This document shows positions 31,825-61,599 of a DNA stretch of 64,000 nt, piece after piece. This stretch comes from Parcubacteria group bacterium. GTDB taxonomy: Bacteria > Patescibacteriota > Minisyncoccia > Phycocordibacterales > Phycocordibacteraceae. Within the stretch, counting starts at the first letter, position 1. The number at the start of each line of letters is the position of its first letter. Where the stretch lies: assembly GCA_028286615.1 (NCBI GenBank), contig JAQBRG010000004.1, positions 111,867 through 175,866 of the forward strand, given 5' to 3'. The notes beneath the pieces were generated by a model. It was not told where the DNA came from. It made no database searches and worked only from the letters and a program-made list of their open reading frames with translations. Position numbers and translations under genes: made by a program.

Positions 31825-33318
31825 ATGCCAGGATACGGGCTCTCTGCAGCTCTCGGATTTACAGTCGGTGTAGGTCTTGGAACGTTTAGTGCGCTGTCTT
31901 GGCCGACATTACTATTCTTTGGCTTGCTTTCGCTACTGATTTTGGGCAGTGGTGTGTGGCCGGTGCGAAGAAACACCTGTATCGCCGTAGGCATATTTTT
32001 GCTCATGGTGGTACTAGGCGTTTGCCGTTTCATGGAAAGCGAACAGAGGAAAGTAGCCTCTGTGATGATAGTTCCGAGGTTCGGTGTTTCACAAGAAGGA
32101 AAGATCGTAGCGGACCCTGATATACGAGAGAGTTCGCAGCGCGTAACGGTTGAGATTGAAATAGAAGGAAAGAAGACACGAATTCTTGCCGTTACCCCTC
32201 TGTACCCTCAGCTTTCTTTCGGACAAAGAGTTCTTGTCTCTGGGACTCCTGAACTACCTAAACCCTTTGAGACAGATGGGGGACGAACATTCAGGTACGA
32301 CAAGTTTCTTGAGAAGGATGGCATCTTTGCCATCGTGCAGAAAGCGAATGTTAAAGTTCTCGGTCCTCCTGAAGGGCTGTTTGCTCAACTGCTTTCCTAC
32401 CTCTATCTTGGAAAACACATCTTTACGGATGCCCTTGGAGCGGCGCTTCCGGAACCCGAGTCCAGCCTCGCTGTTGGAATTCTCACAGGAGGAAAGCAGG
32501 GACTAGGAAAAGAATTGCTTGAAGCGTTTACGATTGCCGGACTCCTGCCTGTTGTTGTCTTGTCTGGATACAACGTGATGATTGTGGTTGAGGCAGTGCT
32601 GCGAATATTTTCTTTTCTGCCAAAGCGGATTTCCATTGTTGTGGCTGCGATAACCATTACGCTTTTCGTACTTGTTGCGGGTGCCGGGTCTTCAGCAGTC
32701 CGTGCAGGGTTCATGGCTGGACTCGGATTACTCGCACGATTTACTGACCGAACATACGATGTGCTGCGTGCGCTCATTATCGTACTTGTGGTGATGCTGA
32801 TAATTAATCCACTCTACCTTGTGTATGATCCTGGGTTTCAATTCTCATTCGCTGCAACACTCGGTCTTGTTCTCGGCTCGCCACTCGTACTAGAGAGACT
32901 CTCCTGGATCAAGGGAAGATTCTTACGAGAGATTCTTGCTTCAACAATTGCAGCTCAAGTATTTGTGCTCCCGCTTCTTCTGTACCAAACAGGAAATCTT
33001 TCTCTGGTCTCGCTTCCTGCAAATGTTCTTGTGCTTCCGGTTGTGCCGCTTGCGATGCTTTTCTCTGCGATAGCAGGAGTGTGCACTTTAGTGTTTCCCG
33101 CACTCGGACCCTTGATCGCTTTTCCTGCGTACACGCTTCTATGGTTCGTTATTGCTGTCGCAGAGAATATTGCACGACTCCCGTTTGCAGATGTTGTTAT
33201 TCCAATCTTTCCGTTTTGGGTTGTGGGTCTTTCGTACGTGGTTTTGTTTTGGATAGGAAAGAGAATAAAAAAGAACCAGTGGGATGACCCACTGGTTCAG
33301 ACTTCGAACAAGGACTAG
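31825..33318 (+). CDS. comEC: DNA internalization competence protein ComEC/Rec2, membrane channel portion (DUF4131 plus competence domain, no MBL domain)
   Basis: Polytopic membrane protein of 497 aa with an N-terminal OB-like region and a ComEC-type TM core (ILTGGKQGL...LLPVVVLSGYNVMIV...AGSSAVRAGFMAG). Confidence 0.7.
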   Translation: MPGYGLSAALGFTVGVGLGTFSALSWPTLLFFGLLSLLILGSGVWPVRRNTCIAVGIFLLMVVLGVCRFMESEQRKVASVMIVPRFGVSQEGKIVADPDIRESSQRVTVEIEIEGKKTRILAVTPLYPQLSFGQRVLVSGTPELPKPFETDGGRTFRYDKFLEKDGIFAIVQKANVKVLGPPEGLFAQLLSYLYLGKHIFTDALGAALPEPESSLAVGILTGGKQGLGKELLEAFTIAGLLPVVVLSGYNVMIVVEAVLRIFSFLPKRISIVVAAITITLFVLVAGAGSSAVRAGFMAGLGLLARFTDRTYDVLRALIIVLVVMLIINPLYLVYDPGFQFSFAATLGLVLGSPLVLERLSWIKGRFLREILASTIAAQVFVLPLLLYQTGNLSLVSLPANVLVLPVVPLAMLFSAIAGVCTLVFPALGPLIAFPAYTLLWFVIAVAENIARLPFADVVIPIFPFWVVGLSYVVLFWIGKRIKKNQWDDPLVQTSNKD

Positions 33319-44997: not shown

Positions 44998-45027
44998 TTT
45001 GCATTTCCTAGCAGCCTCCTATATATT
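44998..45027 (+). promoter_or_regulatory. rpsL promoter, TTTGCA-17-ATATAT(T)
   Basis: The hexamers lie 35-65 nt upstream of the rpsL ATG. Confidence 0.5.
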
Positions 45028-45062
45028 GCAGGTATCCCGCAGAGCGGGTTTTCATTTGCCAC

Positions 45063-45473
45063 ATGGCCACAATCAACCAGCTCACAAAGTCCGCCCGCAA
45101 GAACAAGACCCGCAAATCAAAGGTGGTGGCCCTTGGTCGTGGTTTCAATGCACTTAAGAACCGCCCTACCTTCTACCCAGCTCCTTTCAAGCGTGGCGTT
45201 TGCACGAAGGTAACTACGAAAACCCCTCGCAAGCCTAACTCAGCTATCCGTAAGATCGCTCGCGTACGTCTCACCAACGGCATGGAAGTAACCGCATACA
45301 TTCCAGGAGAGGGACACAACCTCCAGGAACACTCAGTGGTTATGCTTCGTGGTGGTCGCGTGAAGGACATTGGTGTGCAGTACACCATCGTTCGCGGACG
45401 TCTCGACACGGCCGGTCTTGATAAGCGCCGCCGCTCTCGCTCTCGCTATGGTGCTAAGAAGCCAAAAGCATAG
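45063..45473 (+). CDS. rpsL: 30S ribosomal protein S12
   Basis: [48 protein letters not shown] is an S12 signature. Confidence 0.9.
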
Positions 45474-45498
45474 GCTCTATCAGTTTTAGTACGAAATC

Positions 45499-45963
45499 AT
45501 GCGCCATCCTGTAAAAAACAAGTATCCTCGCCGACCAGACCTTATCTATCAGTCTGAGGCTATCTCCCGTTTCATTAACACTGTTATGTGGGACGGAAAG
45601 AAAGACACAGCTCGTGCCGTTGTGTACGCTGCTCTTGATAAGATCAAGGCACAGGAACTCGATCCTCTTGAGACTTTTGAGACTGCTATCCGCAACGTTT
45701 CTCCGCTCATGGAGGTTCGTTCTCGCCGCGTCGGAGGTGCTAACTACCAGGTTCCTCGCGAAGTTCCTCAGCAGCGCCGCGTATCTCTTGCATACCGTTG
45801 GCTCATCAACGCAGCTCGCGCAAAGAAGGGAAAGCCTATGGCAGACAAGCTTGCAGAAGAAATCATGCTCGCTGTTAAGAACGAAGGCTCAGCAATCAAG
45901 AAGAAGGACGACATGCACCGCATGGCAGACGCCAACAAGGCATTTGCCCACTTCGCTTGGTAA
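45499..45963 (+). CDS. rpsG: 30S ribosomal protein S7
   Basis: VMWDGKKDTARAVVYAAL...RRVGGANYQVP is an S7 signature. Confidence 0.9.
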   Translation: MRHPVKNKYPRRPDLIYQSEAISRFINTVMWDGKKDTARAVVYAALDKIKAQELDPLETFETAIRNVSPLMEVRSRRVGGANYQVPREVPQQRRVSLAYRWLINAARAKKGKPMADKLAEEIMLAVKNEGSAIKKKDDMHRMADANKAFAHFAW

Positions 45964-45984
45964 TTCCAATAACAAGAAAGCAGA

Positions 45985-46018
45985 AACCGCGCTCAAGCTT
46001 GGGCGCGGTTTTTGTTAT
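45985..46018 (+). terminator. Intrinsic terminator after rpsG
   Basis: AACCGCGC-...-GCGCGGTT followed by TTTGTTATTT. Confidence 0.75.
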
Positions 46019-46023
46019 TTATC

Positions 46024-46284
46024 TCATTGGGGTTTCTTCAAATCTCCCATCTTCTCAAGAAGCTCCCTTGATTGCTTAGAGGTATTTCTGAAGCCTAGGG
46101 AGGAAAGATCGTGAGTGCCTGTTGCTCCCCAAGACTGACCCATATTGTCGGTGGCGTAAGTAATGCCGCCGACAGAAGTAAAGCTGGGCGTTCTGCTCGC
46201 TTTTTGATCGCTTGAGAAAGTTATGTTTGGCATAGGCTTAAAGCCTAACTTACGTAACTGTTTACTTAGCCTGCTCGTAGCCAT
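46024..46284 (-). CDS. Hypothetical protein (weak)
   Basis: ORF of 86 aa, Ser/Lys-rich. No other support. Confidence 0.25.
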   Translation of the reverse strand: MATSRLSKQLRKLGFKPMPNITFSSDQKASRTPSFTSVGGITYATDNMGQSWGATGTHDLSSLGFRNTSKQSRELLEKMGDLKKPQ

Positions 46285-46424
46285 CTACGGCTCCTATTGT
46301 TCGAGGCAATTGATGAAGGCGAAGTTTGTGTCTGCCTTGCAATCCGGATGTTTGGTTTCCGCGTATCTGGGAACATCTAGCACGTAGCCTACGCTTATTT
46401 TACGTGTCAGCAAGAATTCTTTTA

Positions 46425-46453
46425 TTGCGCAGATTAAGAACGAGGCATATATT
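46425..46453 (+). promoter_or_regulatory. Promoter TTGCGC-17-TATATT for the KGG-motif gene
   Basis: The hexamers lie 45 nt upstream of the ATG, and a GGAAGGAAG Shine-Dalgarno site is present. Confidence 0.45.
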
Positions 46454-46498
46454 CAAAACAGGACTCCATGGGGAGTTGAGAGTAGGGAAGGAAGTCAG

Positions 46499-46708
46499 AT
46501 GGACGGATCAGAGAAACCAGTGCGTCGCTCCGCACCTCGCGGATTCGCGGCAATGGACGCCGATAAACGTCGCGAGATCGCTCGCAAAGGCGGCAAGAGC
46601 GTCCCGGACGAGAAGCGCAGCTTCTTCCAAGACCGCACTCTGGCCGCCGACGCCGGCAGGAAAGGCGGCAAGCAAACGCAGTCGGGACGGACTCCTGAAA
46701 TCCAGTAG
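46499..46708 (+). CDS. KGG-repeat general stress protein (YciG-like)
   Basis: Two KGG motifs (ARKGGKS, GRKGGKQ) in a 69-aa hydrophilic basic protein. High GC. Confidence 0.55.
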   Translation: MDGSEKPVRRSAPRGFAAMDADKRREIARKGGKSVPDEKRSFFQDRTLAADAGRKGGKQTQSGRTPEIQ

Positions 46709-46771
46709 TCACTAAATAAGACCCAAAATAAAGCCGCGCCTCCTCCCAGGGGCGCGGTTTCTACAATGTAT

Positions 46772-47110
46772 TCAATTCGGTAGCACAGCTTTCCCGACGT
46801 GTGTGAATCCATAGGGCTCAAGATCGACACATTTAAGGATTCGCCACGCTTGGCCAGTTTCATCATAGGCAATGGTCAGACCACCGAGCTTGTTACCAAA
46901 TTCCATAGACATAAAACAAGGTTCGTTTTCAGCTAGGGGACGAAAAACCTTCTTTGCCTCGAGAGGGCTGATTTTGGGCGGGGCTACCTCCTCCGAAAGA
47001 AGGTAGCGAGCTTTAATTAAAGAAACCTCTCGCTTGTCATCTTTGGGGTTGAATGGCTCGAATCCAAGGTGATAAAGCTTGGCTGCGAAAGGGCCTAGGG
47101 AGTCGGTCAC
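46772..47110 (-). CDS. Hypothetical protein
   Basis: ORF of 112 aa. Confidence 0.35.
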   Translation of the reverse strand: MTDSLGPFAAKLYHLGFEPFNPKDDKREVSLIKARYLLSEEVAPPKISPLEAKKVFRPLAENEPCFMSMEFGNKLGGLTIAYDETGQAWRILKCVDLEPYGFTHVGKAVLPN

Positions 47111-47182
47111 TGGACATCTCCTCTGTCTGGCAGGACTCTAACACTTTGGCCGCTTTTTGTCTGTATTTTCGTCTCGAGAGAC

Positions 47183-47212
47183 TTGACAAAGTGACTCTGT
47201 TGCTGTATATTA
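47183..47212 (+). promoter_or_regulatory. Promoter TTGACA-17/18-TATATT
   Basis: Consensus -35 hexamer and a near-consensus -10 hexamer upstream of the 47271 ORF. Confidence 0.5.
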
Positions 47213-47270
47213 GACGCAGCTCATAAGCGCAGGATGTTCCTGCCATGCAAGGCTCAGGAGGGCCTAGAAC

Positions 47271-47510
47271 ATGAATTCTTCGAAAATCCTCGGTTCGATC
47301 GCGGTTATCGGAATGGTCATGATGGCGGTTTCGACCCCCATCCTGCTCAACCAGCCCACCGATTTCTACATCGACGCCGTCTTCAACAAGTACCTGTCCT
47401 TCGTCATGATCTTCGCCGTCGGCCTCGGAATCTTCGCTTCGGCCACCCCGTTCGCCGTCCGCGCCTGGTTCCACGAGCGTCAGCAACTGCTGGCCATCGA
47501 AGCCAACTAA
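47271..47510 (+). CDS. Hypothetical small membrane protein (two TM helices)
   Basis: 79 aa with hydrophobic segments IAVIGMVMMAV and FVMIFAVGLGIFA. High GC. Confidence 0.45.
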   Translation: MNSSKILGSIAVIGMVMMAVSTPILLNQPTDFYIDAVFNKYLSFVMIFAVGLGIFASATPFAVRAWFHERQQLLAIEAN

Positions 47511-47532
47511 ACAACCCCGCCTCCAAGGAGGC

Positions 47533-47572
47533 ACCGGTCGTAGCAATAAAATGCTATGACCGGTTTTTCGTT
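47533..47572 (+). terminator. Intrinsic terminator upstream of fusA
   Basis: ACCGGTCGTAGCA-...-TGCTATGACCGGT followed by TTTTCGTTTC. Confidence 0.7.
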
Positions 47573-47647
47573 TCTTGCGCTTTGGTGCCGCTTTCAGTAC
47601 ATTATAGGTAACGCATTGGCGGGCTTTTTATTTTATTTACTCTACTT

Positions 47648-49795
47648 ATGAACCGCGATTATCCTCTCGAGAAAGTGCGCAACTTCGGTATCGTCGCCCA
47701 CGTGGACGCCGGCAAGACCACCACGTCTGAACGTGTGCTCTTCTACACAGGCTCCCAGCACAAGATTGGAGAGGTGCACGAAGGAGAGACCACCACAGAC
47801 TGGATGGAACAGGAGCGCGAGCGCGGCATCACTATTACTGCTGCTGCCATTACCTGTTTCTGGACTAAGTCCCAGGAGAAGGACAAGAAGGATGTTGCGA
47901 AGAAGTATCGCTTCAATGTTATCGACACTCCAGGACACATCGACTTCACCGCCGAGGTTAAGCGTTCTATGCGTGTGCTCGACGGCGCAATTGTAGTGTT
48001 CGACGGCGTGGCTGGAGTTGAGCCTCAGTCTGAGACTAACTGGCGCTACGCAGACGAAGCCAAAGTGCCTCGCGTTTGTTTCATCAACAAGCTTGACCGT
48101 ACTGGTGCATCGTTCGAAGACTCATACCAGTCCATCCTCGACCGTCTTTCAAAGAAAGCAGTACGTGCACAGATTCCTATGGGAGCTGAAGGAGACTTCG
48201 AAGGAGTTGTGGATCTTCTTTCAATGAAGGCATACACCTTCTCTGGAAACATGGGCGAAGAAGTAATCGAGGGAGAGGTACCAGAGAAGTATCTTGAAGA
48301 TGCTAAGAAGTACCGCACCGAACTCGTTGAGCGCATCGTTGAACATGACGAGGCCCAGATGAACGCGTTCTTCGAAGGAAATGAGCCAACACTCGACGAG
48401 CTCAAGGCAACGCTTCGCAAGGCAGTTATTGATAACGAGATTTTCCCCGTATACACCGGTTCTGCTCTTAAGAACAAGGGTGTGCAGCTCGTACTTGATG
48501 CGGTTGTGGACTTCCTTCCGTCTCCAGTAGACCTCAAGCCAGTTAAGGGAATCAATCCAAAGACCGGAGAAGAAATTGAACGAAAGCCGGACGACAGCGA
48601 GCCATTTACAGCGCTTGCTTTCAAACTTCAGACAGACCCATTCGTTGGAGCTCTTACCTTCTTCCGTGTGTACGCAGGTACTGTTACTGCTGGTTCATAC
48701 GTATACAACGCCAACACCGGTTCTAAGGAGCGTGTAGGACGTATCGTGCGTCTTCAGGCAGACAAGCGTGAGGAAGTGGAGAAGGTTTTCACCGGAGAGA
48801 TCGCCGCTATGGTGGGTCTTAAGGATACGAAGACCTCACACACTCTTTGTGACGAAGCTAATCCAATCATCCTTGAGGAGATTAAATTCCCTGAGCCTGT
48901 GGTATCGCTTCGCATTGAACCAAAGACTAAGGCAGACCAAGAGAAGATGGGCATGGCACTTAAGAAGCTTTCGGACGAAGACCCAACCTTCAAAGTTTCT
49001 TCTGACGACGAGACTGGCGAGACCATCATCGCAGGTATGGGTGAGCTCCACCTTGAGATTCTTGTGGATCGCATGCAGCGCGAGTTCAACGTGGGAGCTA
49101 ACGTTGGTAAGCCACAGGTGGCATACCGCGAAACTATCATGGGAACTGCTGACGTTGATAACAAGTACATCAAACAGACAGGAGGTAAGGGTCAGTATGG
49201 TCACGTGAAGATCAAAGTTAAGCACATGGAGCCAGTTGATCCTGAGGCCAAGGTTGCCAAGAACACTACTCGTGAAGACCACTTCGAGTTCATCAACAAC
49301 ATTAAGGGAGGTGTTATTCCATCTGAATACTTCAACCCTATTGAAAAGGGTATTCGCGAAGCAATGAACCGTGGTGTTCTTGCTGGATACCAGATGGTTG
49401 ATGTGTCCGTAGACCTCTATGATGGGTCCTTCCATGATGTGGACTCCTCTGAAATCGCCTTCAAGATCGCAGCATCTCAGGCATTCCAGGAAGCAGCTCA
49501 GAAGGCTAAGCCAGTTATCCTTGAGCCTATTATGAACGTTGAGGTTGTTGTCCCTGAGCAGTTCATGGGAGACATCACGGGTTCTATCTCAGGTAAGCGT
49601 GGTTCTATCGAAGGAATGGAAGATCGCGGTATGAACAAGGCTATCAAGGCCAAGGTACCGCTTTCAGAAATGTTCGGATACACCACTTCTCTCCGCTCTA
49701 TGACGGAAGGACGCGGTTCTATGACTATGGAATTCGATCACTACGAGGTTGTTCCTCAGAACGTGGCGGCAGATATCATCGCAAGCAGGAAGTAA
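47648..49795 (+). CDS. fusA: Elongation factor G
   Basis: The G domain AHVDAGKTT, followed by DTPGH and NKLD, at a full length of 715 aa. Confidence 0.95.
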
Positions 49796-49812
49796 TTTCT
49801 GAGTGGAGTTTG

Positions 49813-49846
49813 CAAAAGACCGCTTTCAAGCGGCCTTTTGCTTTGT
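49813..49846 (+). terminator. Intrinsic terminator after fusA
   Basis: GACCGC-TTTCAA-GCGGCC (one mismatch) followed by TTTTGCTTTG. Confidence 0.55.
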
Positions 49847-49907
49847 ATGAAATAAGAAAAGGCTTGAGTGGTTAAATACTCAAGCCTTTTCGCACGAAAG
49901 ATCGTCG

Positions 49908-50147
49908 TCAATTGCTGCTCTTTGGGGGCATGTTGATTCGTAACAGGCACACGATGATAGTGATGAGCATGAAGATCAACGAAAGCAGAATGGCCCCTCT
50001 CCACCAGATAGAGGGGTAGCTTACATTTCCCCAAGCAGAGCCTAGCGCTGTCATCCCCCACACCGCGACCCCAAATGGGTGGCCAAAGAGCCACCCAAAA
50101 ACCAGGATGATGGTTGGCGGTCTCATCGTGCTATGCATAAGAGCCAT
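49908..50147 (-). CDS. Hypothetical small membrane protein (weak)
   Basis: 80 aa from the internal Met MALMH, with two hydrophobic helices. The long upstream extension of the ORF would overlap the tuf start and was discarded. Confidence 0.3.
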   Translation of the reverse strand: MALMHSTMRPPTIILVFGWLFGHPFGVAVWGMTALGSAWGNVSYPSIWWRGAILLSLIFMLITIIVCLLRINMPPKSSN

Positions 50148-50440
50148 TGGAACCTTCTCCTCTGAAGCGTTATTGCCTCCTACCCGAACGGTACTTTCAA
50201 TGTCCGTATCTGTAAAGCAATCTCTATCTTTTAGCTTGACCGGCCGGTATCTCTCCGGTATCTTAATTGTTAACGCGAGTACGGCGCTCTTTTCAATGTT
50301 CCTCTCCATACGGGGTAGGGATGGCTGGAAGGCGCTGCGCGGGGGAAAACACCTAACGCCTTGGTCGCCTGCCATTCTCTGATAGAAGCAGGCAGGCGCG
50401 GTGAAGTTATCACTTTTAGCTACCACTAACTTACAAACGT

Positions 50441-51643
50441 ATGGCAGATGCATTCGATCGAAGCAAGCCGCACATGAACGTGGGCACCATCGGCCACGTT
50501 GACCACGGCAAGACGACGCTCACCGCGGCGATCCTCAATGTGCTTAACCTCAACAAGGCAGCAGGCTACAAGGCCCGCGCCGAGAACGTCGATAACATCG
50601 ACAACGCGCCTGAAGAAAAGGCTCGTGGTATTACTATCGCGCTCCACCACTCGGAGTACGAGAGTCCTAACCGTCACTACGCTCACATCGATGCGCCAGG
50701 ACACGCGGACTACATCAAGAACATGATTACGGGAGCTGCCCAGATGGATGGTGCAGTACTCGTAGTTGCTGCTACTGATGGTGCTATGCCTCAGACTCGT
50801 GAGCACATCTTGCTCGCAAAGCAGGTTGGTGTGCCTCGCCTCATCATCTTCCTCAACAAGGTAGATATGGTGGACGATGCAGACATGCTCGACCTCGTTG
50901 AAGAGGAAATCCGTGAGCTTCTAACGAAGCAGGGATTTGATGGAGCAACAACTCCAGTTATTCGCGGTTCAGGTCTTAAGGCTCTTGAAGCAACAGACCC
51001 AACCAACGAATATGCTCTTAAGGTGAAGGAGCTCGTCGATACGATGGACTCTTACTTCCCACAGCCAGAGCGCGATCTTGATAAGCCATTCCTTATGCCT
51101 ATCGAGGACATCTTCTCGATCGAAGGACGCGGTACCGTTATTACGGGACGCATCGAGCGCGGAATCATCAAGGTTGGTGAGGAAGTTGAAATTGTCGGCC
51201 TTCAGCCAACAGCTAAGACAACCGTTACTGGTATCGAGATGTTCAACAAGCAGCTCCAGACAGGAGAGGCAGGCGACAACGCAGGTATTCTTCTCCGTGG
51301 TACGAAGAAGGAAGACGTTCACCGTGGTCAGGTTCTCGCAAAGTCTGGTTCTGTAACGCCTCACACTGACTTCGAAGCAGAGGTATACATCCTCTCTAAG
51401 GACGAAGGTGGACGTCACACTCCTTTCTTCTCAGGATACAAGCCTCAGTTCTACGTTCGTACAACCGACGTAACTGGCGAAGTAACCCTTCCAGATGGAA
51501 AGGAAATGGTTATGCCAGGTGACACTGTTACCTTCAAGGTAAAGCTCACCGCGCCTATCGCACTTGAGGACAACACCCGCTTCTCAGTTCGTGAAGGAGG
51601 CAAGACTGTGGGAGCAGGTGTGGTCACTAAGATCACTGCGTAA
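50441..51643 (+). CDS. tuf: Elongation factor Tu
   Basis: [22 protein letters not shown] and NKVD, at 400 aa. Confidence 0.95.
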
Positions 51644-51655
51644 GCACTTACTCGT

Positions 51656-52018
51656 ATGGCAACCACCGCGAAAAAGACTACGAAGAAAGCGGCCGCAGGC
51701 GAAGCCGCGGCGGAGCCCAAGCTTCGCATCCGCGTGCGCGCCTACGAGCATAAGATCCTCGACCTTTCAGTGAAGCAGATCATGGACACCGCGAATCGCT
51801 TTGAAGCGAAGATCGTAGGCCCAGTACCGCTTCCAACTGAGATAAAGCGATGGACCGTGAACCGTTCTACGTTCGTTCACAAGGACGCACGTGAGCAGTT
51901 CGAAATGCGCATCCACAAGCGTCTTATCGACATCCTTTCGCCAAACCCAAAGGTTATTGAGGCTCTCACGAATCTCAACCTTCCTTCAGGCGTAACGATT
52001 GATGTGAAGATGGTCTAA
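51656..52018 (+). CDS. rpsJ: 30S ribosomal protein S10, with an Ala/Lys-rich N-terminal extension
   Basis: [14 protein letters not shown]...[36 protein letters not shown] is an S10 signature. Confidence 0.9.
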
Positions 52019-52041
52019 CTCGAAAGAGAAGACAAAAGCAA

Positions 52042-52070
52042 AACCGCCCGAGAGGGCGGTTTTCTTTATT
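52042..52070 (+). terminator. Intrinsic terminator after rpsJ
   Basis: AACCGCCC-GAGAG-GGCGGTT followed by TTCTTTATT. Confidence 0.8.
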
Positions 52071-52126
52071 GCCTACTAAATATGTTATCTTTTGCATCTG
52101 TTCTTTAGTTTTAAGGAGGTGGCTTC

Positions 52127-52474
52127 ATGCCTACCGTAGGTGGAATACCGCCTGTAGATCCTCACAGGCTTTACTTGAAGCGAGCGCATCGGGTCGGGAT
52201 GGTCTGGAAAGGAATTGATGACCACAATGTAGCGGTAGCGGTAGAGCTGGAAAGACAGAAGGGCATTCCGCAGAAAAATACCGAACGCTGGAAAAAATGG
52301 AAGGACGAGAACGGTGTTCGTCCTCGGGGCTATGACACTCTTGAAGTGTGGCGCGACCCTCGGACAATGCGGTTTTCCAAACCACCCACACCTCAGCAAC
52401 TGGCTCAGATGTTCGGCATGAAGACAGGTGCAGATCTGCCAATTCCGAACAGACGAAACAATGTCAGACCATAA
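52127..52474 (+). CDS. Hypothetical protein inserted between rpsJ and rplC
   Basis: A strong AAGGAGGT Shine-Dalgarno site lies 6 nt upstream. 115 aa, followed by a 9-bp-stem terminator. Confidence 0.55.
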   Translation: MPTVGGIPPVDPHRLYLKRAHRVGMVWKGIDDHNVAVAVELERQKGIPQKNTERWKKWKDENGVRPRGYDTLEVWRDPRTMRFSKPPTPQQLAQMFGMKTGADLPIPNRRNNVRP

Positions 52475-52501
52475 TCAAACTTGGTTATGCAAAATGAAGA
52501 A

Positions 52502-52538
52502 CGGCCCCGCGATAGTCTGCGGGGCCGCTTATTTTACG
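52502..52538 (+). terminator. Intrinsic terminator
   Basis: CGGCCCCGC-GATAGTCT-GCGGGGCCG followed by CTTATTTTA. Confidence 0.7.
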
Positions 52539-52736
52539 GTCCGAAAGGACCTAGAGGCGAGTGGCGGAATCGACGAAGCCGTTGTCGGTTTCGCGCCTGA
52601 TGCCGCTGGAACCACCGTCGCCGATGGCTTCGCCTTCGGGCAAAATCCAGCTGGACGGATCACGCCTGATGTCCCGGTTCATGAAAGACCTCTCTTCCTG
52701 TCTCGACGTTGAGACTTTCGCACTATAGCACCCCTA

Positions 52737-52864
52737 TTTGCATTTAAAACCCGCCCCCTGTATAGTTCCCAAGTCGCTAAGTACGTCCTTCGGGACGGAC
52801 CAATGGCCGGAAGGCTCCGTTTGGGAGCCCAACGCGCTATTGGATTAGCGCGCTTTATTTTTAC
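52737..52864 (+). promoter_or_regulatory. rplC operon promoter (TTTGCA-18-TATAGT) and structured leader: a UUCG-tetraloop hairpin plus a terminator-like hairpin with U-tract ending 3 nt before the ATG
   Basis: TTTGCA at 52737-52742 and TATAGT at 52761-52766. CGTCC-TTCG-GGACG at 52784-52797. CGCGCT-ATTGGATT-AGCGCG followed by CTTTATTTTT at 52833-52862. Confidence 0.5.
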
Positions 52865-53479
52865 ATGAAATTCATCCTCGCTCGCAAAGTTCGCATGACC
52901 CAAGTCTTCGAAGAAGATGGTCGTGTGTTTGCTGGTACCGTTCTAAAGACTGGTCCAGTTGAGGTAACTCAGGTAAAGACTATGGAAACTGACGGCTATG
53001 AGGCTGTTCAGGTTGGTTTCGGCGAGCAGAAAGCAGCTCGTCGTAGCAAGGCCGTTCTTGGACACACCAAGGGCAAAGCTTTCCAGGTCTTGAAGGAGTT
53101 CCGCGGCGAAGTAGGAGATCTTGCTCTTGGTGCTGAGATCACTCCTGACGTATTTGCTGCAGGAGACGCGGTTACAGTATCAGGCGTTTCTAAGGGAAAG
53201 GGCTTTGCGGGCGTGGTTAAGCGCCATGGTTTCCATGGAGGACGCCGCTCGCACGGTCAGAAGCACTCGGAGCGTGAAGCAGGTTCTATCGGTGGAGGCC
53301 CAGGCCGCGCTGGAGGACGTGTTTCTAAGGGCATTCGCATGGCCGGCCGCATGGGCACGGACCGCGTAACGGTGACGAATCTTCGGGTTCTTCGTGTCGA
53401 TACCGCACGTGGCGAAATCATCATCTCAGGCGCAGTGCCAGGAGCTCCTGGAACACTCGTTGAGGTTCGTGCACAGTAA
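52865..53479 (+). CDS. rplC: 50S ribosomal protein L3
   Basis: GVSKGKGFAGVVKRHGF...GGPGRAGGRVSKG is an L3 signature. Confidence 0.9.
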   Translation: MKFILARKVRMTQVFEEDGRVFAGTVLKTGPVEVTQVKTMETDGYEAVQVGFGEQKAARRSKAVLGHTKGKAFQVLKEFRGEVGDLALGAEITPDVFAAGDAVTVSGVSKGKGFAGVVKRHGFHGGRRSHGQKHSEREAGSIGGGPGRAGGRVSKGIRMAGRMGTDRVTVTNLRVLRVDTARGEIIISGAVPGAPGTLVEVRAQ

Positions 53480-53490
53480 TTTTCGTACTT

Positions 53491-54249
53491 ATGGCAACCG
53501 CAAAGAAAACAGTCGCAAAGAAAGCAGCACCTAAGAAGGTGGCAGCTACTCCTGTAGCCGCAAAGACTCTTGGCAACATGGAGGCATCTGTTTGGAACAT
53601 GGCAGGTACTTCAACAGGAACAATCACACTTCCTGAAGAACTCTTCGGTGTTCGTTGGAACGCAGACCTCGTACACCAGGTGGTAATTGGTATGCAAGCT
53701 AACGCTCGCCCAACAACTGCACACACGAAGTTCCGTGGAGAAGTAGCAGGAGGAGGAAAGAAGCCTTGGAAGCAGAAGGGTACAGGACGTGCTCGTCACG
53801 GTTCTACTCGCTCTCCAATCTGGAAGGGTGGAGGTGTAACGCACGGTCCACGCGCTGAAAAGGACTACACCGTTAAGATCAACCGCAAGATGCGCGCTGC
53901 TGCTCTTGCTGCTGTTCTCTCACGCAAGTTCAAGCACGGCGAGATCATCTTCGTAGACTCTCTTTCAATTGCTGCACCTAAGACTGCACAGGCTCGCACC
54001 GCGCTTATCGCAATTGCTAAGGCATCAGGACAGGCAATGCTCGCAACCAAGCGCAAGAACGCAGCCGTTGTGGCATTCGCAAAGAAGGATGCAATGAGCG
54101 AGAAGTCTTTCCGCAACATCAACAGCCTTACGCTCGACGAAGTTCGTAACCTCAACGCTGCAGACCTCGTAACAAAGAAGTACCTTGTTATCGAGAACCC
54201 AGCAGAGGCACTCCCAGTTCTAACAGCCCGCTTCGGCAAGAAGGCATAA
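53491..54249 (+). CDS. rplD: 50S ribosomal protein L4, with an Ala/Lys-rich N-terminal extension
   Basis: KKPWKQKGTGRARHGSTRSPIWKGGGVTHGPR is an L4 signature. Confidence 0.9.
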   Translation: MATAKKTVAKKAAPKKVAATPVAAKTLGNMEASVWNMAGTSTGTITLPEELFGVRWNADLVHQVVIGMQANARPTTAHTKFRGEVAGGGKKPWKQKGTGRARHGSTRSPIWKGGGVTHGPRAEKDYTVKINRKMRAAALAAVLSRKFKHGEIIFVDSLSIAAPKTAQARTALIAIAKASGQAMLATKRKNAAVVAFAKKDAMSEKSFRNINSLTLDEVRNLNAADLVTKKYLVIENPAEALPVLTARFGKKA

Positions 54250-54259
54250 CGATATCTAT

Positions 54260-54634
54260 ATGGCACTTTTCTCAAGCGACAAAAAGAAGACAGTATCAAA
54301 GAAGGCATCTGGAGATGTGGTAGTTCAGCGCGGCATGCTCGCACTTGATGACTCACGCATCGCTAACGTGCTTAAGCGCCCTTGGTTCTCTGAGAAGGCA
54401 CTTATTGGTACTGAAAAGGGAATCTACGTATTCGAAGTTCCTCCTTCCGTAACGAAGATCGATGTTAAGAACGCAATACAGAAGACGTACGGCGTTATGC
54501 CCCGCAAGGTTCGTATGGTTAACCTTCCTGCTAAAACTGTCTCACTTCGCTCACGTCGTGGCACAGGAACCCGTGCAGCCCGTCACAAGGCATACGTGTA
54601 CCTTAACGAGGGTGACAGCATTCAGTTTGCATAG
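54260..54634 (+). CDS. rplW: 50S ribosomal protein L23
   Basis: KGIYVFEVPPSVTKIDVKNAIQKTYGV...VRMVNLPAK is an L23 signature. Confidence 0.9.
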   Translation: MALFSSDKKKTVSKKASGDVVVQRGMLALDDSRIANVLKRPWFSEKALIGTEKGIYVFEVPPSVTKIDVKNAIQKTYGVMPRKVRMVNLPAKTVSLRSRRGTGTRAARHKAYVYLNEGDSIQFA

Positions 54635-54651
54635 TTTCTAATTATTTACGT

Positions 54652-55494
54652 ATGAAAAGCTTCAAGCCAACCTCAAAAAGCCGCCGCTCAATGACCGTCG
54701 TAACGTACCGCGGCGTGCTTTCTGGCGACAAGCCACACAAGGCACTTCTTTCAACGAAGAAGAACCAGGCAGGACGTAACAACTCTGGACGTATTACCGT
54801 TCGTCACCAGGGTGGAGGCCACAAGCGCCGTCTTCGCGATATCGACTTTAAGTACGACAAGAAGAACATCCCAGCTCGCGTTGAGACTATTGAGTACGAT
54901 CCATACCGAACCGCATTCATTGCTCTTTCAGTATTCGCCGATGGAGAGCGCCGTTACGTAACAGTTCCTAAGGACATGAAGGTTGGAGACACATTCATGG
55001 TTGGAGAGAATGCACCTATTAAGACTGGCAACCGTCTTCCTCTCGCGAAGATTCCTTCAGGAACATTCATCTACAACGTAGAGCTTCGTGCAGGAGCAGG
55101 AGCACGCATCGCTCGTTCAGCTGGTATCTACGCTGAGATCATCGCGCACGACGCAGGATACGTGCAGGTTAAGATGCCTTCAACTGAAGTTCGCAAGATT
55201 TCTGAACAGGCATGGGCATCTATCGGTGTTGTTGGAAACGAAGAGCAGCGTCTCGCTAACTACGGAAAGGCAGGTAAGAGCCGTTGGAAGGGTATTCGCC
55301 CAACCGTTCGTGGTACTGCCATGAACCCGGTAGACCACCCACACGGAGGTGGTGAAGGAAAGCAGGGACGTGGTCTCCGCCGTGCCAAGAGCATGTGGGG
55401 CAAGCCAACAGGCAAGGGCCAGAAGACTCGCACTCCAAAGAAATACTCAAACAAGCACATTGTTTCTCGCCGAAAGGTTGGAAAGAAGGGCTAA
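54652..55494 (+). CDS. rplB: 50S ribosomal protein L2
   Basis: RHQGGGHKRRLR and GTAMNPVDHPHGGGEGK are L2 signatures. Confidence 0.95.
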   Translation: MKSFKPTSKSRRSMTVVTYRGVLSGDKPHKALLSTKKNQAGRNNSGRITVRHQGGGHKRRLRDIDFKYDKKNIPARVETIEYDPYRTAFIALSVFADGERRYVTVPKDMKVGDTFMVGENAPIKTGNRLPLAKIPSGTFIYNVELRAGAGARIARSAGIYAEIIAHDAGYVQVKMPSTEVRKISEQAWASIGVVGNEEQRLANYGKAGKSRWKGIRPTVRGTAMNPVDHPHGGGEGKQGRGLRRAKSMWGKPTGKGQKTRTPKKYSNKHIVSRRKVGKKG

Positions 55495-55496
55495 AG

Positions 55497-55530
55497 AAAA
55501 ACCCCGCAGAAGCGGGGTTTTCTTTTATAT
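55497..55530 (+). terminator. Intrinsic terminator after rplB
   Basis: AAACCCCGC-AGAA-GCGGGGTTT followed by TCTTTTATAT. Confidence 0.8.
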
Positions 55531-55537
55531 AGATAAC

Positions 55538-55566
55538 TTGACATATATAGAATTTAATTCTATATA
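55538..55566 (+). promoter_or_regulatory. Promoter TTGACA-17-TATATA whose spacer and -10 form a perfect 21-bp palindrome ATATAGAATT-T-AATTCTATAT
   Basis: The hexamers and the palindrome (55545-55565) lie 27 nt upstream of the AAAGGAGG Shine-Dalgarno site plus ATG of the 55593 ORF. Confidence 0.55.
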
Positions 55567-55592
55567 AAGGGCAGTCAACAAAGGAGGCTTTC

Positions 55593-55823
55593 ATGCCCGT
55601 TCTCATCGCAATCTCTTTGATTTTGTATATCGTCTTCGTGCTCTTTGTCGCCTTAAAGTCTGGATCGGTCACAATCGACGGTCGGGAAATCAAGGACCCA
55701 TTCCTTCGGGGTCTTATTGCGCTAGCCATCTGGCCGTTAATTGGCCTTGTTCTCTGGCTGATTGGTTTGGTTGGTGGCTTTTTGCTCTTACCGTTCGCTG
55801 CTTTATTCGGCCTTGTCCATTAG
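55593..55823 (+). CDS. Hypothetical small membrane protein (two TM helices) inserted in the S10 operon
   Basis: Strong Shine-Dalgarno site. 76 aa, with two hydrophobic helices. Confidence 0.5.
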   Translation: MPVLIAISLILYIVFVLFVALKSGSVTIDGREIKDPFLRGLIALAIWPLIGLVLWLIGLVGGFLLLPFAALFGLVH

Positions 55824-55895
55824 ACGAGAGCGCCAGAAGTCTCGTGGAGAAGCTTTGCTTCCGCGAGGCTTTTTCATTTAATAAGGATCAATATT

Positions 55896-56330
55896 TTAAG
55901 CGAACTCTCGTATGTTTTGTGCAATCTCTTTAAGCTCTTCTTGCGGGCTGATTGGCCTGTCGCCAGTTGGCCGGTATAGGAATTCTCTTGGTTCGTATTC
56001 GTACACACCGGCATCTCCTTCTTTTCGAGGCAGGACATGCAGATGGAAATGCGGTACAGATTGTCCACCAATCTTCTCTTCGTTCCATGCATAGTTAAAT
56101 CCTTCTGTGCCAAACACTTTTTGCATAGAGACCTTAATTCCTGCACGAAGTTGCTCAATAGCTTCGCGCTCAGCTTCAGTTAGTTCCTCGTAGTACTGCA
56201 CATGTCGAATGGGCGATATGAGCGTGTGCCCAGGAACGATAGGAATGTTTGTAAGGAACGCGAAAGCTAAATCGTTCTTAACGATCGTACGATCTTCTAA
56301 TTCCGCATTGCCACAGAAAGCACACTCCAT
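55896..56330 (-). CDS. HIT-family hydrolase (second paralog in the window)
   Basis: HFHLHVLPR is a histidine triad. The N-terminal CAFCG resembles a zinc-binding motif. Confidence 0.8.
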   Translation of the reverse strand: MECAFCGNAELEDRTIVKNDLAFAFLTNIPIVPGHTLISPIRHVQYYEELTEAEREAIEQLRAGIKVSMQKVFGTEGFNYAWNEEKIGGQSVPHFHLHVLPRKEGDAGVYEYEPREFLYRPTGDRPISPQEELKEIAQNIREFA

Positions 56331-56332
56331 AT

Positions 56333-57142
56333 TTATTGAACTTTATACCCAGGCTTCAGGATGTCTGAAAGCTGTGAGAGCGGAACAGGAAACTCAACAG
56401 TTCCAAGTACATACGGGCCAACGGCGTATGGAGAGAAGACAATAACGAGATTGTCACCCTCTACATAGAAGGTCTGGAAGCTCTCAACTACTGGCTTCGT
56501 ACCGTCTTCGATCATATCCATAGGCACTTCAGACACTGCTACCTGCTCGCGTTCAGCGATGATGCCAGGAAGCTGTGCACGAGAGATCTGGGAGAGCTTG
56601 GTTAGATAGTTTGCGCCTGGAACAAAGAGATTTCCAATAGCGAGGTTGATACCGGTTGAGGTGTCGAAGGTAAAGGAGTGATAGTAGGTGTTGGGGTGCG
56701 CTCCGAGAGTGTTCGCGTATATCTCGTAGAGATAGGTAATGGTGCTAGGAGACATGTGCGTGGTGTACGCGATGGTAAGTGCGTACTTGCGATCATCCTT
56801 CCCGATACCCTGCATATCAATATCTTCTTGAGTAAGATCATTTAGACCAGACTCCTTCTTAAAGGTATCGATAGTATCCGTTACCCACGCCTTCATAAGA
56901 GCAGCTGCCTGAATGCCCGCTCCGGCCTCGCTACTAGCTGAAAGAGCTGCAGCCTTAGGGAATAGTGCTCGAACCTCGTAGTACTGCTGAAGATCAATGA
57001 TTTGCTCGTTGTTCTGGGCTTCTTGCTCAGTACCTGTAGAAGTCTGCAACGCGGGAGCCGGGTGAGTGGCCATAAACCAAAGGGCAAGACCAAGAATAAT
57101 GAATGCGGCGATGCCAACCCCAACGAATTCCTTGTTTTTCAT
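56333..57142 (-). CDS. Membrane-anchored DUF3298/DUF4163-like protein (RsiV/PdaC C-terminal-domain family)
   Basis: N-terminal TM helix. The C-terminal PYAVGPYVLGTVEFPVP motif is characteristic of DUF3298. Confidence 0.5.
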   Translation of the reverse strand: MKNKEFVGVGIAAFIILGLALWFMATHPAPALQTSTGTEQEAQNNEQIIDLQQYYEVRALFPKAAALSASSEAGAGIQAAALMKAWVTDTIDTFKKESGLNDLTQEDIDMQGIGKDDRKYALTIAYTTHMSPSTITYLYEIYANTLGAHPNTYYHSFTFDTSTGINLAIGNLFVPGANYLTKLSQISRAQLPGIIAEREQVAVSEVPMDMIEDGTKPVVESFQTFYVEGDNLVIVFSPYAVGPYVLGTVEFPVPLSQLSDILKPGYKVQ

Positions 57143-57169
57143 ATAGAGATAAGTATATATCTAAACAAA

Positions 57170-57193
57170 GGACCCTGCGCGTGCGCAGGGTCC
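57170..57193 (-). terminator. Terminator downstream of the 57200-57766 ORF
   Basis: GGACCCTGCGC-GCGCAGGGTCC, followed on the minus strand by TTTGTTTAG. Confidence 0.6.
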
Positions 57194-57199
57194 GTACTC

Positions 57200-57766
57200 T
57201 TACATATGCCAGCAGATCATCTTATCGAGTTCGTCCGAAAGCAGGCTGCCGCCCGGGAAAACAAAGAACCAAATTTCCCAGGTTACTTGAAGTCGCTCAA
57301 ACATCTCGTGGACTTCGTTTCTTTCAAGAGCGCGGAAGGATTTTCTTGGATGCGGTTCAATTCCCACTAATTCATCGCTATCGATCGCTTCCCGTAACGC
57401 ACGGACAGCCAGCGGGATGCTTTGCTTAGAGACTCGCGATAAGCGCCACCCCAGCCACCTTGCCAGGCGCGAGTAATGTCGTTGCTGACGTCTGTCCCAT
57501 ACTGTGTTCAGTCGCTTGACGGCCTCGTCCTGTCGCTTTTCCAGGCTCGAAACCTTAGAAACGTGTTTAGTTAGCTTGTTATTTCGATCCGTAATCCGCA
57601 CCACCGTCTTGGACCGATGGCTAAAATCTCCAGTCTCAAGAGCTTCTCTGGAGGCCTGAATTACGTTACCTGCAGGTGGAAAGAACTCAATTTGGATGAT
57701 GTTTGGGAGTATATGCCCCATAACCGGTCTCCCTTTCTCATGAATGGACTGGCAAAACCCTAACAT
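57200..57766 (-). CDS. Hypothetical protein
   Basis: ORF of 188 aa (or a shorter version from MGHILPN). It is the first gene of a three-gene minus-strand cassette. Confidence 0.4.
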   Translation of the reverse strand: MLGFCQSIHEKGRPVMGHILPNIIQIEFFPPAGNVIQASREALETGDFSHRSKTVVRITDRNNKLTKHVSKVSSLEKRQDEAVKRLNTVWDRRQQRHYSRLARWLGWRLSRVSKQSIPLAVRALREAIDSDELVGIEPHPRKSFRALERNEVHEMFERLQVTWEIWFFVFPGGSLLSDELDKMICWHM

Positions 57767-57813
57767 AACGGCCTAAAGTTTGACACTTACCGCCATTTCG
57801 TATAGATTTTACC

Positions 57814-57840
57814 TATCCCGCCCAGCGGGCTTTTAACTAC
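57814..57840 (+). promoter_or_regulatory. rpsS leader hairpin plus U-tract, TATCCCGC-CCA-GCGGG-CTTTT, ending 2 nt before the ATG
   Basis: Same arm sequences as the rpsL leader hairpin. Preceded by a TTGACA-15/16-TATAGA promoter at 57780-57807. Confidence 0.5.
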
Positions 57841-57842
57841 TC

Positions 57843-58190
57843 ATGTCCCGTTCCCTCAAGAAAGGCCCATACGTCGACTTCAAGCTCCTGAAGAAAGTTC
57901 AGGACAAAAAGCCTGCATCTGCAGGGGTTATTAAGACGTGGGCACGTAACAGCCAGATCGCTCCTGAGTTCGTTGGATTCACATTCGGTGTACACAACGG
58001 CAAGCAGCACCTGGAAGTTCTTGTGGCTGAGGAGATGGTAGGGCACCGCCTGGGAGAATTCTCTCCAACTAAGAAGTTCGTTCGTCACGGAGGAAAGATG
58101 CAGAAGCAGCTTGAGCAGAAGAAGCAGCAGGCAGAAATAACCGCAGCTAAGGCTGCAAAGGCAGCTCCAGCAGCGCCTAAGAAGAAATAA
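57843..58190 (+). CDS. rpsS: 30S ribosomal protein S19, with an Ala/Lys-rich C-terminal extension
   Basis: [12 protein letters not shown]...[18 protein letters not shown] is an S19 signature. Confidence 0.9.
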
Positions 58191-58191
58191 T

Positions 58192-58608: not shown

Positions 58609-58614
58609 TTTTAT

Positions 58615-59295: not shown

Positions 59296-59297
59296 TT

Positions 59298-59717: not shown

Positions 59718-59727
59718 ATATTTACGT

Positions 59728-59922: not shown

Positions 59923-59930
59923 ACACTACT

Positions 59931-60179: not shown

Positions 60180-60190
60180 CTACCTTTACC

Positions 60191-60568: not shown

Positions 60569-60578
60569 CATTTGATAT

Positions 60579-60923: not shown

Positions 60924-60933
60924 TCCTATATTT

Positions 60934-61476: not shown

Positions 61477-61480
61477 GACA

Positions 61481-61510: not shown

Positions 61511-61599
61511 GGTTTTATAGCCATAGCTATTTGACAAGCTAGCTAATATTCAGTATTGTGATTTCAGACCCAATAACCAGCCCTTGAAAGGGGATACCC

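Follow-up and report, generated by a model that had tools for sequence, protein, structure and literature searches.

A conserved hairpin and U-tract module at the predicted 5′ end of translation operon mRNAs in Paceibacteria

A 64,000-nucleotide stretch of a Parcubacteria group bacterium genome (GenBank assembly GCA_028286615.1, contig JAQBRG010000004.1, positions 111,867 to 175,866; hereafter the window, with coordinates counted from its first letter) carries a str-S10-spc cluster of ribosomal protein (r-protein) and elongation factor genes at 45063-64000. We find that operons of this cluster are headed by a small module, a G+C hairpin followed directly by a T-run, that is conserved among related genomes, covaries in its stem, is restricted to translation operons and is anchored to the promoter, with the T-tract tied to the stem. 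The module is a conserved and apparently undescribed signal that probably controls either the level of operon transcription or the lifetime of the mRNA.

Hairpin and T-run modules in r-protein operon leaders

The leaders of rpsL, rpsS, rplC and rpsN, all on the forward strand like the other leader features described below, contain a G+C hairpin followed by a T-run close to the ATG and lack a Shine-Dalgarno (SD) sequence. The rpsL leader (45033-45065) reads TAT-CCCGC-AGA-GCGGG-TTTTCATTTGCCAC-ATG; its 5′ module (45036-45057) comprises the hairpin CCCGC-AGA-GCGGG (45036-45048) and the U-tract TTTTCATTT (45049-45057), and the ATG is at 45063. The rpsS leader (57814-57845) reads TAT-CCCGC-CCA-GCGGG-CTTTTAACTACTC-ATG, with a module at 57817-57834 made of the hairpin CCCGC-CCA-GCGGG (57817-57829) and CTTTT (57830-57834) ahead of the ATG at 57843, and the hairpin is also the minimum-free-energy structure of this leader. 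A preliminary description of the window had quoted both leaders, at the same positions, along with their common CCCGC/GCGGG stem and 3-nt loop, and these are as it reported. The rpsN leader, absent from that description, holds a further copy (62852-62874) in which the hairpin GGCTC-CCCG-GAGCT (62852-62865) is followed by ATTTTTCTT (62866-62874) and the ATG (62875-62877). The ATG of rpsL, rpsS and rpsN lies 9-14 nt past the hairpin of the module, so that the module is nearly the entire 5′ untranslated region.

These modules follow sigma-70-like promoters. The rpsL promoter (44999-45027) has a -35 box TTGCAT (44999-45004), a 17-nt spacer and a -10 box TATATT (45022-45027); the rpsS promoter (57780-57808) has TTGACA (57780-57785), a 17-nt spacer and TAGATT (57803-57808); and the rpsN promoter (62815-62843) combines TTGACA and TAGATT with the same 17-nt spacing. 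The stem starts 8 nt past the -10 hexamer (6-8 nt over the hairpins of the window), and an A stands at the usual +1 distance, which places the predicted transcription start sites (TSSs) at A45034 for rpsL and A57815 for rpsS. Given this spacing, the mRNA should begin almost directly with the hairpin, after about two unpaired nucleotides. Both rpsL and rpsS have divergent upstream neighbours, so the hairpin is not the terminator of a preceding gene.

Weak forms of the module are found at fusA and tuf. The fusA promoter (47575-47603; -35 TTGCGC at 47575-47580, 17-nt spacer, -10 TACATT at 47598-47603), at the place of which relatives have a conserved TATCTT or TATAGT box, is followed by AACGC-ATTG-GCGGG and a long U-tract TTTTTATTTTATTT (47625-47638; whole module 47610-47638) ahead of the ATG at 47648. 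The preliminary description had included the fusA leader for its GGCGGGCTTTTTATTTTATTTAC, which is present (47618-47640); the only possible stem is of 3 bp (47612-47614 with 47619-47621), and shuffled versions of the leader are more structured than the leader itself (z = +1.84). The tuf promoter (50236-50264; TTGACC-17-TATCTT) is followed by a promoter-proximal element, AACGCG-AGTAC-GGCGC-TCTTTTCAAT (50272-50297), which lies about 140 nt from the ATG at 50441 and is nearly invariant among close relatives.

The module is anchored to the promoter

For comparison, we used the 80 best loci retrieved from a genome collection with an RplC query (L-numbered). These all come from Paceibacterota/Kaiserbacteria/Nomurabacteria-type metagenome-assembled genomes (MAGs), at 54-77% identity. 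The TTGCAT-17-TATA(G/T)T layout is kept among rpsL orthologues, and 48 of the 65 rpsS orthologues have a promoter with a score of 9/12 or higher. The predicted promoters put the TSS 1-3 nt upstream of the stem.

Of 66 promoter-anchored leaders, 40 have 8 nt between the -10 hexamer and the stem and 54 have 7-9 nt; the predicted +1 is an A located 2 nt ahead of the stem. The distance from stem to ATG varies from 9 to 28 nt. The same placement is seen where the start codon is far away. In 10 relatives, tuf has a 5-7-bp hairpin and T-tract directly after the promoter, 79-203 nt upstream of the ATG, and in seven relatives with long rpsS leaders the promoter, hairpin and U-run are followed by a further 70-185 nt of leader. 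The module thus stays beside the promoter with the ATG 70-200 nt away, which links it to the start of transcription rather than to ribosome binding. This result does not bear out the earlier suggestion that the hairpin occupies the place of the ribosome binding site and acts by translational occlusion. We likewise reject, as a sole explanation, the possibility that the U-run is a mere landing site for SD-independent ribosomes, since the U-run trails the hairpin even at 70-200 nt from the ATG.

T-tract hairpins at promoters are restricted to translation operons

Promoter-like sites on both strands of the window and the 80 loci (~1.4 Mb) were examined for hairpins with stems of 5 bp or more that begin 4-10 nt downstream of the -10 box. 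A hairpin with a T-tract is present at 79 of 690 such sites, and 76 of these 79 lie ahead of translation genes (rpsS 47, rpsN 13, tuf 10, fusA 4, rpsL 1, rplC 1), the other 3 being ahead of no open reading frame (ORF). The enrichment for translation operons is strong (odds ratio 80, p = 7e-38); the low rpsL count reflects that most rpsL promoters score 8/12, under the cut-off of the scan. Promoter-proximal hairpins that lack a T-tract number 36, and 26 of them precede unrelated genes or no ORF. Since only the U-run hairpins are restricted to translation operons, the T-run is integral to the signal and carries its specificity.

A metagenome scan with the 25-nt motif TATCCCGC-N3-GCGGG-YTTTYNWYT gave at least 120 matches. 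Among the matches listed, at least 100 precede rpsS and at least 6 precede rpsL, with at least 9 at one unrelated coding locus and at least 5 at contig ends; many matching contigs came from groundwater of the Hainich wells. A search of the window and 7 loci against Rfam 15 returned no match at the gathering threshold, and at E values up to 5 the only matches were chance ones on true terminators.

Stem complementarity is conserved while stem sequence varies

In unselected orthologues, the 40 nt that precede the ATG contain a hairpin with a T-tail in 12/21 cases for rpsL, 40/65 for rpsS, 16/60 for rplC and 7/20 for rpsN. The same test gives 4/27 for fusA and 0/36 for each of tuf and rpsJ, and dinucleotide shuffles of those leaders give ~3%. 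The combination of hairpin and T-tail thus recurs beyond chance. More distant relatives also have 5-7-bp hairpins in the fusA leader. The preliminary description of a recurrent, conserved and terminator-shaped cis-element in r-protein operon leaders is upheld by these counts; it had allowed that the motif might be missing from orthologous leaders, where we find it.

Across the 66 leaders, stems are of 5-6 bp, rarely 7-8, and loops of 3-4 nt, up to 6, with a mean folding free energy (dG) of -6.8 kcal/mol. Counting from the stem, positions +2 to +4 are 88-94% T. Between there and the ATG hardly any G occurs, and the position of the T-run follows the stem rather than the ATG. The stems themselves are diverse. 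There are 33 distinct ones among the 66 leaders, and loops are not conserved. The stems of rpsL orthologues include CTTCCC/GGGGAG, GACTCG/CGAGTC, GACCC/GGGTC and others, and 12 rpsN orthologues have covarying stems such as AGCCCT/AGGGCT, AGCTCG/TGAGCT and GCTCC/GGAGC.

Covariation, which the preliminary description had suggested looking for, was assessed with hairpin-anchored counts and one gap-free alignment of 12 hairpins with stems other than CCCGC. In this alignment, compensatory double changes are found in 4 of 5 pairs and none of 500 shuffles scores as high; when the register is slid, 30-53% of cells pair, versus 100% in register, for sequences that had been picked for forming a hairpin. 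Because of the 33 stems and the compensatory double changes, structure rather than sequence seems to be selected, which points to selection on the RNA-level structure or at least on the complementary pair. MAFFT alignment followed by RNAalifold on the rpsL, rpsN and rpsS leaders did not recover the hairpin, because variable stem and loop lengths put the arms out of register. A covariance model (R1) made from 33 hairpins finds rpsS and rpsL but also ordinary terminators; it gives fusA 8 bits, does not detect rpsN and was set aside because its information content is too low.

The stem shared by rpsL and rpsS

The CCCGC/GCGGG stem is common to rpsL and rpsS in this genome, in the relatives L006 and L009 and in at least 6 metagenome contigs. 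In four other relatives the rpsL and rpsS stems differ from each other. Within this genome, the half-sites are CCCGC for rpsL and rpsS, GGCTC for rpsN and AACGC for fusA and tuf. The identity of the rpsL and rpsS stems is thus specific to a sub-lineage. The string CCCGCNNNGCGGG is present in 3 copies in the window (0.05 expected from shuffles), the third of which (62755-62767) is the core of an 11-bp terminator (62749-62773) after an inserted gene; the CCCGC/GCGGG core is in fact found in two ordinary terminators of the window (55498-55521 and 62749-62773).

The preliminary description had taken the repeated stem as a sign of a shared trans-acting factor, a view that finds no support given that the stem is common only to close relatives and that rpsN, fusA and tuf have other stems. 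We reject a sequence-specific shared factor or DNA operator, as the stems differ between operons and genomes and the core also occurs in terminators. The more general possibility of a DNA-level element, either an inverted repeat (+2 to +15) that serves as operator for a dimeric repressor or a discriminator-like promoter element rich in G+C, is one to which we give hardly any credence. It would account for a palindrome just past the -10 box and for the equal half-sites at rpsL and rpsS of this genome. However, the half-sites differ within the genome, they differ between genomes while complementarity is kept, and a strict T-run on one side would not be expected of a symmetric operator.

A factor that recognizes shape is possible. 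One protein, for example bS1, an Hfq/Sm-like protein or another 5′-end binder, might read “hairpin then UUU” at the 5′ end and co-regulate the translation or stability of the regulon, as an analogue of LARP1 on 5′ terminal oligopyrimidine (5′ TOP) mRNAs. The regulon-like gene set (r-proteins, EF-G, EF-Tu), the dependence of the element on 5′-end position, the pyrimidine-rich tail with almost no G and the presence of bS1 with 3-4 domains in bacteria of the Candidate Phyla Radiation (CPR) (PMC9297842) would all suit such a protein. We nevertheless consider it quite improbable, as stem and loop sequences are not conserved, no candidate protein is named and effects at the level of the polymerase already account fully for a hairpin with a U-run.

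The rplC leader resembles a regulated attenuator

In rplC, the module is part of a longer RNA. The promoter (52738-52766; -35 TTGCAT, 17-nt spacer, -10 TATAGT at 52761-52766), whose GTGTAGAGT or TGTATAGT box is conserved in 23 relatives, is followed by a multi-hairpin leader (52772-52864) containing P1 (52784-52797), CCAATGGC (52800-52807), P2 (52813-52829) and P3, a terminator-like 7-bp hairpin (52833-52852) with CTTTATTTTT (52853-52862) behind it. The hairpin and U-tract that the preliminary description had placed at 52833-52862 are thus where it put them, with the tract ending 2 nt rather than 3 nt before the ATG (52865). The leader is ~95 nt long and conserved in the order GCTA(C/A)GTAC, P1, GGACC(A/T)ATGGC, optional P2, P3 (CGCGC...GCGCG), U-run, ATG. 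It is present upstream of rplC across loci L001-L073, with GGACC(A/T)ATGGC invariant, and has no match in Rfam.

The minimum-free-energy fold of this leader pairs CCAATGGC (52800-52807) with GCTATTGG (52836-52843), the latter comprising the 5′ arm and loop of P3. Among 15 close relatives, this pairing is kept in 86% of cells, versus 25-61% in slid controls, and shows modest covariation (3 double changes, including AU-to-UA and AU-to-CG; 2 of 500 shuffles reach the score). A second subgroup of rplC leaders uses TGCTGTTG as the partner, a segment within the 3′ side of an extended P3. The pairing looks like a pseudoknot or an antiterminator that would compete with the terminator-like hairpin, and the leader as a whole looks like a regulated attenuator in an operon that encodes L3 and L4. 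An rplC attenuator with a structured sensor domain is plausible, and the leader is a candidate new riboregulator of the L3/L4 operon.

These features bear on operon-specific autogenous control, in which an r-protein of each operon (S7, S4, L4, S19 and so on) would bind the hairpin as a mimic of rRNA and repress translation or promote termination. Leaders of this sort are common in other bacteria (PMC7247131), and the multi-helix, conserved and covarying rplC leader is compatible with such control. In rpsL, rpsS and rpsN, however, the RNA is a 13-16-nt hairpin with a variable stem and loop; one shape serves 5-6 operons; no Rfam r-protein leader matches the window or 7 loci; and the module lies away from the ATG in the long-leader variants. 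Of the autogenous control or attenuation put forward in the preliminary description, attenuation at rplC is therefore the plausible part, while the simple hairpins, with their unconserved loops, have no rRNA-mimic site for S7, S4, L4 or L3. As an account of the simple hairpins, we find autogenous control very unlikely.

Translation initiation and possible 5′ stabilization

None of the 19 r-protein and elongation factor genes of the cluster has an SD sequence. Among cluster genes of the 80 loci, 2% have an SD-like motif upstream, compared with 11% of other genes and 4-5% in control windows. About half of Parcubacteria are reported to be without an anti-SD motif while retaining bS1 with 3-4 domains (PMC9297842), and the rarity of SD sequences in our loci agrees with this reported loss. 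The absence of an SD sequence that the preliminary description had remarked on is thus real for these leaders and is a rule of the clade, not a special feature of the module. A -10-like hexamer (TAnnnT) ends 6-8 nt before the ATG in ~20% of other genes in the 80 loci, where the background is ~2% per position, which suggests that leaderless mRNAs are frequent; ~15-20% of non-cluster genes look leaderless. Many non-ribosomal genes of the window have such a box, for example those at 21267, 22218, 24517, 26458, 29602, 31358, 42757 (reverse strand) and 57142 (reverse strand).

The main rival to the reading we prefer draws on this initiation context. The module could be purely a 5′-terminal stabilizing stem-loop of the ompA, aprE or T7 phi10 type, which would block RppH-type pyrophosphate removal and 5′-end-dependent attack by RNase Y/J and so yield long-lived mRNAs from the operons with the highest expression, with the U-rich, G-poor tail merely keeping the start region unstructured for SD-independent (S1-type) initiation. 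The strict 5′ position whatever the leader length fits this idea, as do the A at the predicted +1 with only AU or AC unpaired before the stem, given that RppH of B. subtilis requires at least two and preferably at least three unpaired 5′ nucleotides (reviewed in PMC3997798). RNase Y is encoded in the window (7368-8897, reverse strand), small stems suffice for protection, and conservation of structure rather than sequence, as seen in the stem diversity and compensated pairs above, is what a stabilizer would show. Initiation without an SD sequence requires an unstructured start region (PMC3121790); the fusA leader is under-structured, and bases around the AUG are unpaired with a mean probability of 0.63. 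What a stabilizer leaves unexplained is the 88-94% T right after the stem even where the ATG is 70-200 nt off, and the restriction to translation operons of T-tract hairpins alone. In addition, the fusA and tuf stems of this genome are too weak to protect, and two unpaired nucleotides are borderline for protection. On balance we regard pure stabilization as rather unlikely.

A proposed weak promoter-proximal terminator or pause

The reading that we tentatively favour, while rating it at somewhat under an even chance, is that the module is a weak promoter-proximal terminator or pause without a sensor, whose read-through mRNAs are also protected at the 5′ end. Here we infer the TSS position, the termination or pausing and its modulator. 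A sigma-70-type promoter (TTGACA or TTGCAT, 17 nt, TAnnnT) would start the RNA 1-3 nt upstream of the stem, so that the 5-6-bp G+C hairpin with its 3-4-nt loop and the U-run directly after it would be the extreme 5′ end of the mRNAs of rpsL, fusA, tuf, rpsS, rpsN and some rplC operons in Paceibacteria. Polymerase would be halted ~25 nt after initiation, at a weak intrinsic terminator or a hairpin-stabilized pause. Lacking a sensor domain itself, such an attenuator would have its read-through set by polymerase kinetics and by factors such as NusA (encoded in the window at 11464-12885, reverse strand) and the supply of NTPs or UTP. Read-through transcripts, with ~2 unpaired 5′ nucleotides, should then also be shielded from 5′-end-dependent decay; RNase Y is among the proteins encoded in the window. 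At rplC, the terminator-like hairpin comes last, after a conserved two-hairpin domain, a segment of which can pair with its 5′ arm and loop.

A U-run directly behind a G+C hairpin tends intrinsically toward termination, and such a combination is unlikely to be kept in highly expressed units unless its termination property is used. We favour an attenuator or pause because this termination-prone combination is conserved nonetheless, because only the U-run hairpins are regulon-specific and because rplC joins the same terminal module to a switch-like upstream domain. The leader tails (TTTTCATTT, CTTTTC...) also resemble the tails of bona fide terminators in the same genomes, and the CCCGC/GCGGG core recurs in the two true terminators of the window mentioned above.

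Several points weigh against a role in termination. The leader hairpins are weaker than operon-terminal ones (median dG -7.0 versus -15.2 kcal/mol, Mann-Whitney p = 1.6e-4) and lack the A/T-extended stems of many of the latter, so that as terminators they would be partial or inefficient and strongly dependent on polymerase kinetics. The position directly after the stem (+1) is A or C in 57% of leaders, versus 17% of real terminators. The fusA and tuf copies of this genome have 3-bp stems only. In rpsL, rpsS and rpsN, the hairpin is the whole of the upstream RNA, so that neither an antiterminator nor a domain sensing a ligand or protein would fit. An attenuator has no obvious need for exact 5′ placement, whereas a 5′ stabilizer does, and a constitutive terminator before the most highly expressed operons would be costly.

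Separately, we observe a 5-bp hairpin, GCTTC-CGC-GAGGC followed by TTTTTCATTT (55852-55877), at the 3′ end of an inserted 76-amino acid gene, between convergent genes. This case hints that hairpins as short as those of the leaders may terminate here.

Gene cluster and other leader sequences

The cluster runs from rpsL and rpsG through 3 small inserted genes to fusA, tuf, rpsJ and 1 inserted gene; continues with rplC, rplD, rplW, rplB, 4 inserted genes and rpsS through rplE; and ends with 2 inserted genes followed by rpsN, rpsH and rplF. The assignments of L14, L24 and L5 are backed by Pfam. The cluster is divided into at least 7 transcription units; every one has a sigma-70-like promoter, and in most cases a terminator closes the unit before it. 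Exact-protein look-ups aimed at following the genome beyond the window yielded only a 2.9-kb contig. The break between rplB and rpsS is clade-wide, a gap of hundreds to thousands of nucleotides being present in nearly all relatives.

Inserted small or hypothetical genes with promoters and terminators of their own interrupt the cluster at 45960-47650, 52040-52530, 55500-57800 and 61480-62800; the 5 that were run against Pfam gave no matches. Unlike the r-protein genes, several of them have strong SD sequences, for example AAGGAGG before 52127 and 55593. A non-coding RNA in the 1.7-kb gap between rpsG and fusA was considered and rejected, as the gap is filled by small SD-led genes. Among the genes in this region is one for a 69-amino acid KGG-repeat small stress-type protein (46425-46708), which has a promoter-proximal 6-bp hairpin without a U-run and then an SD sequence. 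Its homologue in L006 (3283) has the same layout, indicating that 5′ hairpins without a U-tract also exist.

Further structures and conserved blocks were seen in individual leaders. For the 3′ arm of the rpsL hairpin, GAGCGGGU, an alternative pairing is possible with AACCAGCUC in codons 7-9, which would enclose the AUG (45042-45085; -14.3 kcal/mol, z = -2.5). This pairing is found only in this genome and L009, and we treat it as incidental because it is so confined. In L031, L038 and L043, the alternative long rpsS leader contains, beyond the hairpin and U-run, the conserved block GAGATGGCGGTGA...CACGACCTAGCCATG; these leaders have no Rfam match, and no tRNA genes were found when looked for ahead of them. 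The tuf leader (50265-50440, ~170 nt) is conserved and apparently structured, with segments such as GGCGCTGCGCGGG ... GCCTTGGTCGCCTGCC ... GGCAGGCG. It is also conserved upstream of tuf in seven relatives, and in more distant ones a TTCTCG(Y)RC motif recurs 40-50 nt ahead of the tuf start codon. The tuf leader has no Rfam match.

Elsewhere, the window encodes type IV pilus/type II secretion system ATPase and platform proteins and ComEC (17015-20518, 31825-33318). Pilus and competence genes agree with the gene content of CPR bacteria.

Relation to known systems and implications

The component parts of the module are known, namely terminator-like hairpins, 5′ stem-loops and r-protein leaders. 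What appears new is one minimal, 5′-fixed module common to 5-6 translation-apparatus operons across a CPR class. We found no description of r-protein leaders from CPR bacteria in the literature.

The closest comparisons share some of these properties. The E. coli S10 leader, with its L4- and NusA-dependent termination at hairpin HE and a U-tract, is likewise a terminator-shaped leader of an r-protein operon near the first start codon; NusA is encoded here too, and the leader of the rplC operon (L3, L4, L23, L2) has upstream helices and a terminal hairpin with a U-tract. However, the S10 leader is ~170 nt long, serves one operon and has a protein-responsive domain, whereas the rpsL, rpsS and rpsN modules are sensor-less 13-16-nt hairpins at +2, of a shape common to 5-6 operons, and no sequence or Rfam similarity between the two was found. 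The stem-loops of E. coli ompA and papA, B. subtilis aprE and T7 phi10 are also ~2 nt from the 5′ end of abundant mRNAs, with stem sequence irrelevant, yet these stabilizers have no obligatory U-run by the stem and are not confined to one functional regulon. NusA-dependent weak terminators and the UTP-sensitive attenuation of pyrBI similarly combine a weak hairpin and a U-tract with polymerase kinetics, NusA or UTP in place of a sensor, but they are not known from +2 to +25 of r-protein operons, and pyrBI adds a leader peptide and coupled translation. The Rfam r-protein leaders (L10, L20, S15 and the candidates of Eckert and Weinberg 2020) are, like the module, cis-RNAs upstream of r-protein genes recognized by comparative genomics, and none of these families gives a relevant match to the modules at the gathering threshold or at E below 5.

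A more distant likeness is to the 5′ TOP of eukaryotes, which is also position-dependent, 5′ and oligopyrimidine and marks the same gene set (r-proteins, EF-Tu/eEF1A, EF-G/eEF2). The analogy is one of function only, since there is no cap, LARP1 or homology here and a hairpin precedes the pyrimidine run. By this analogy, and as a speculation that we think unlikely, the module could be a bacterial counterpart of 5′ TOP, a position-dependent 5′ tag of the translation regulon of Paceibacteria (r-proteins, EF-G, EF-Tu) that couples ribosome output to resources. If so, the tag would act through an attenuator sensitive to UTP/NTP or NusA in nucleotide-salvaging organisms, or through a 5′-end-binding protein, and would take the place of the autogenous feedback on single operons and of the ppGpp/DksA control known from model bacteria.

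Coordination of ribosome synthesis in the uncultivated, genome-reduced CPR/Patescibacteria is largely unexplored in the literature we found. A simple cis-module on nearly all translation operons of the cluster offers a testable handle on growth control in this clade, and could supply promoter and leader parts as well as a diagnostic signature of transcription units for the annotation of Paceibacteria MAGs. More broadly, a single terminator-like shape may act as both 5′ cap and attenuator, which would be relevant to RNA regulation in minimal genomes.

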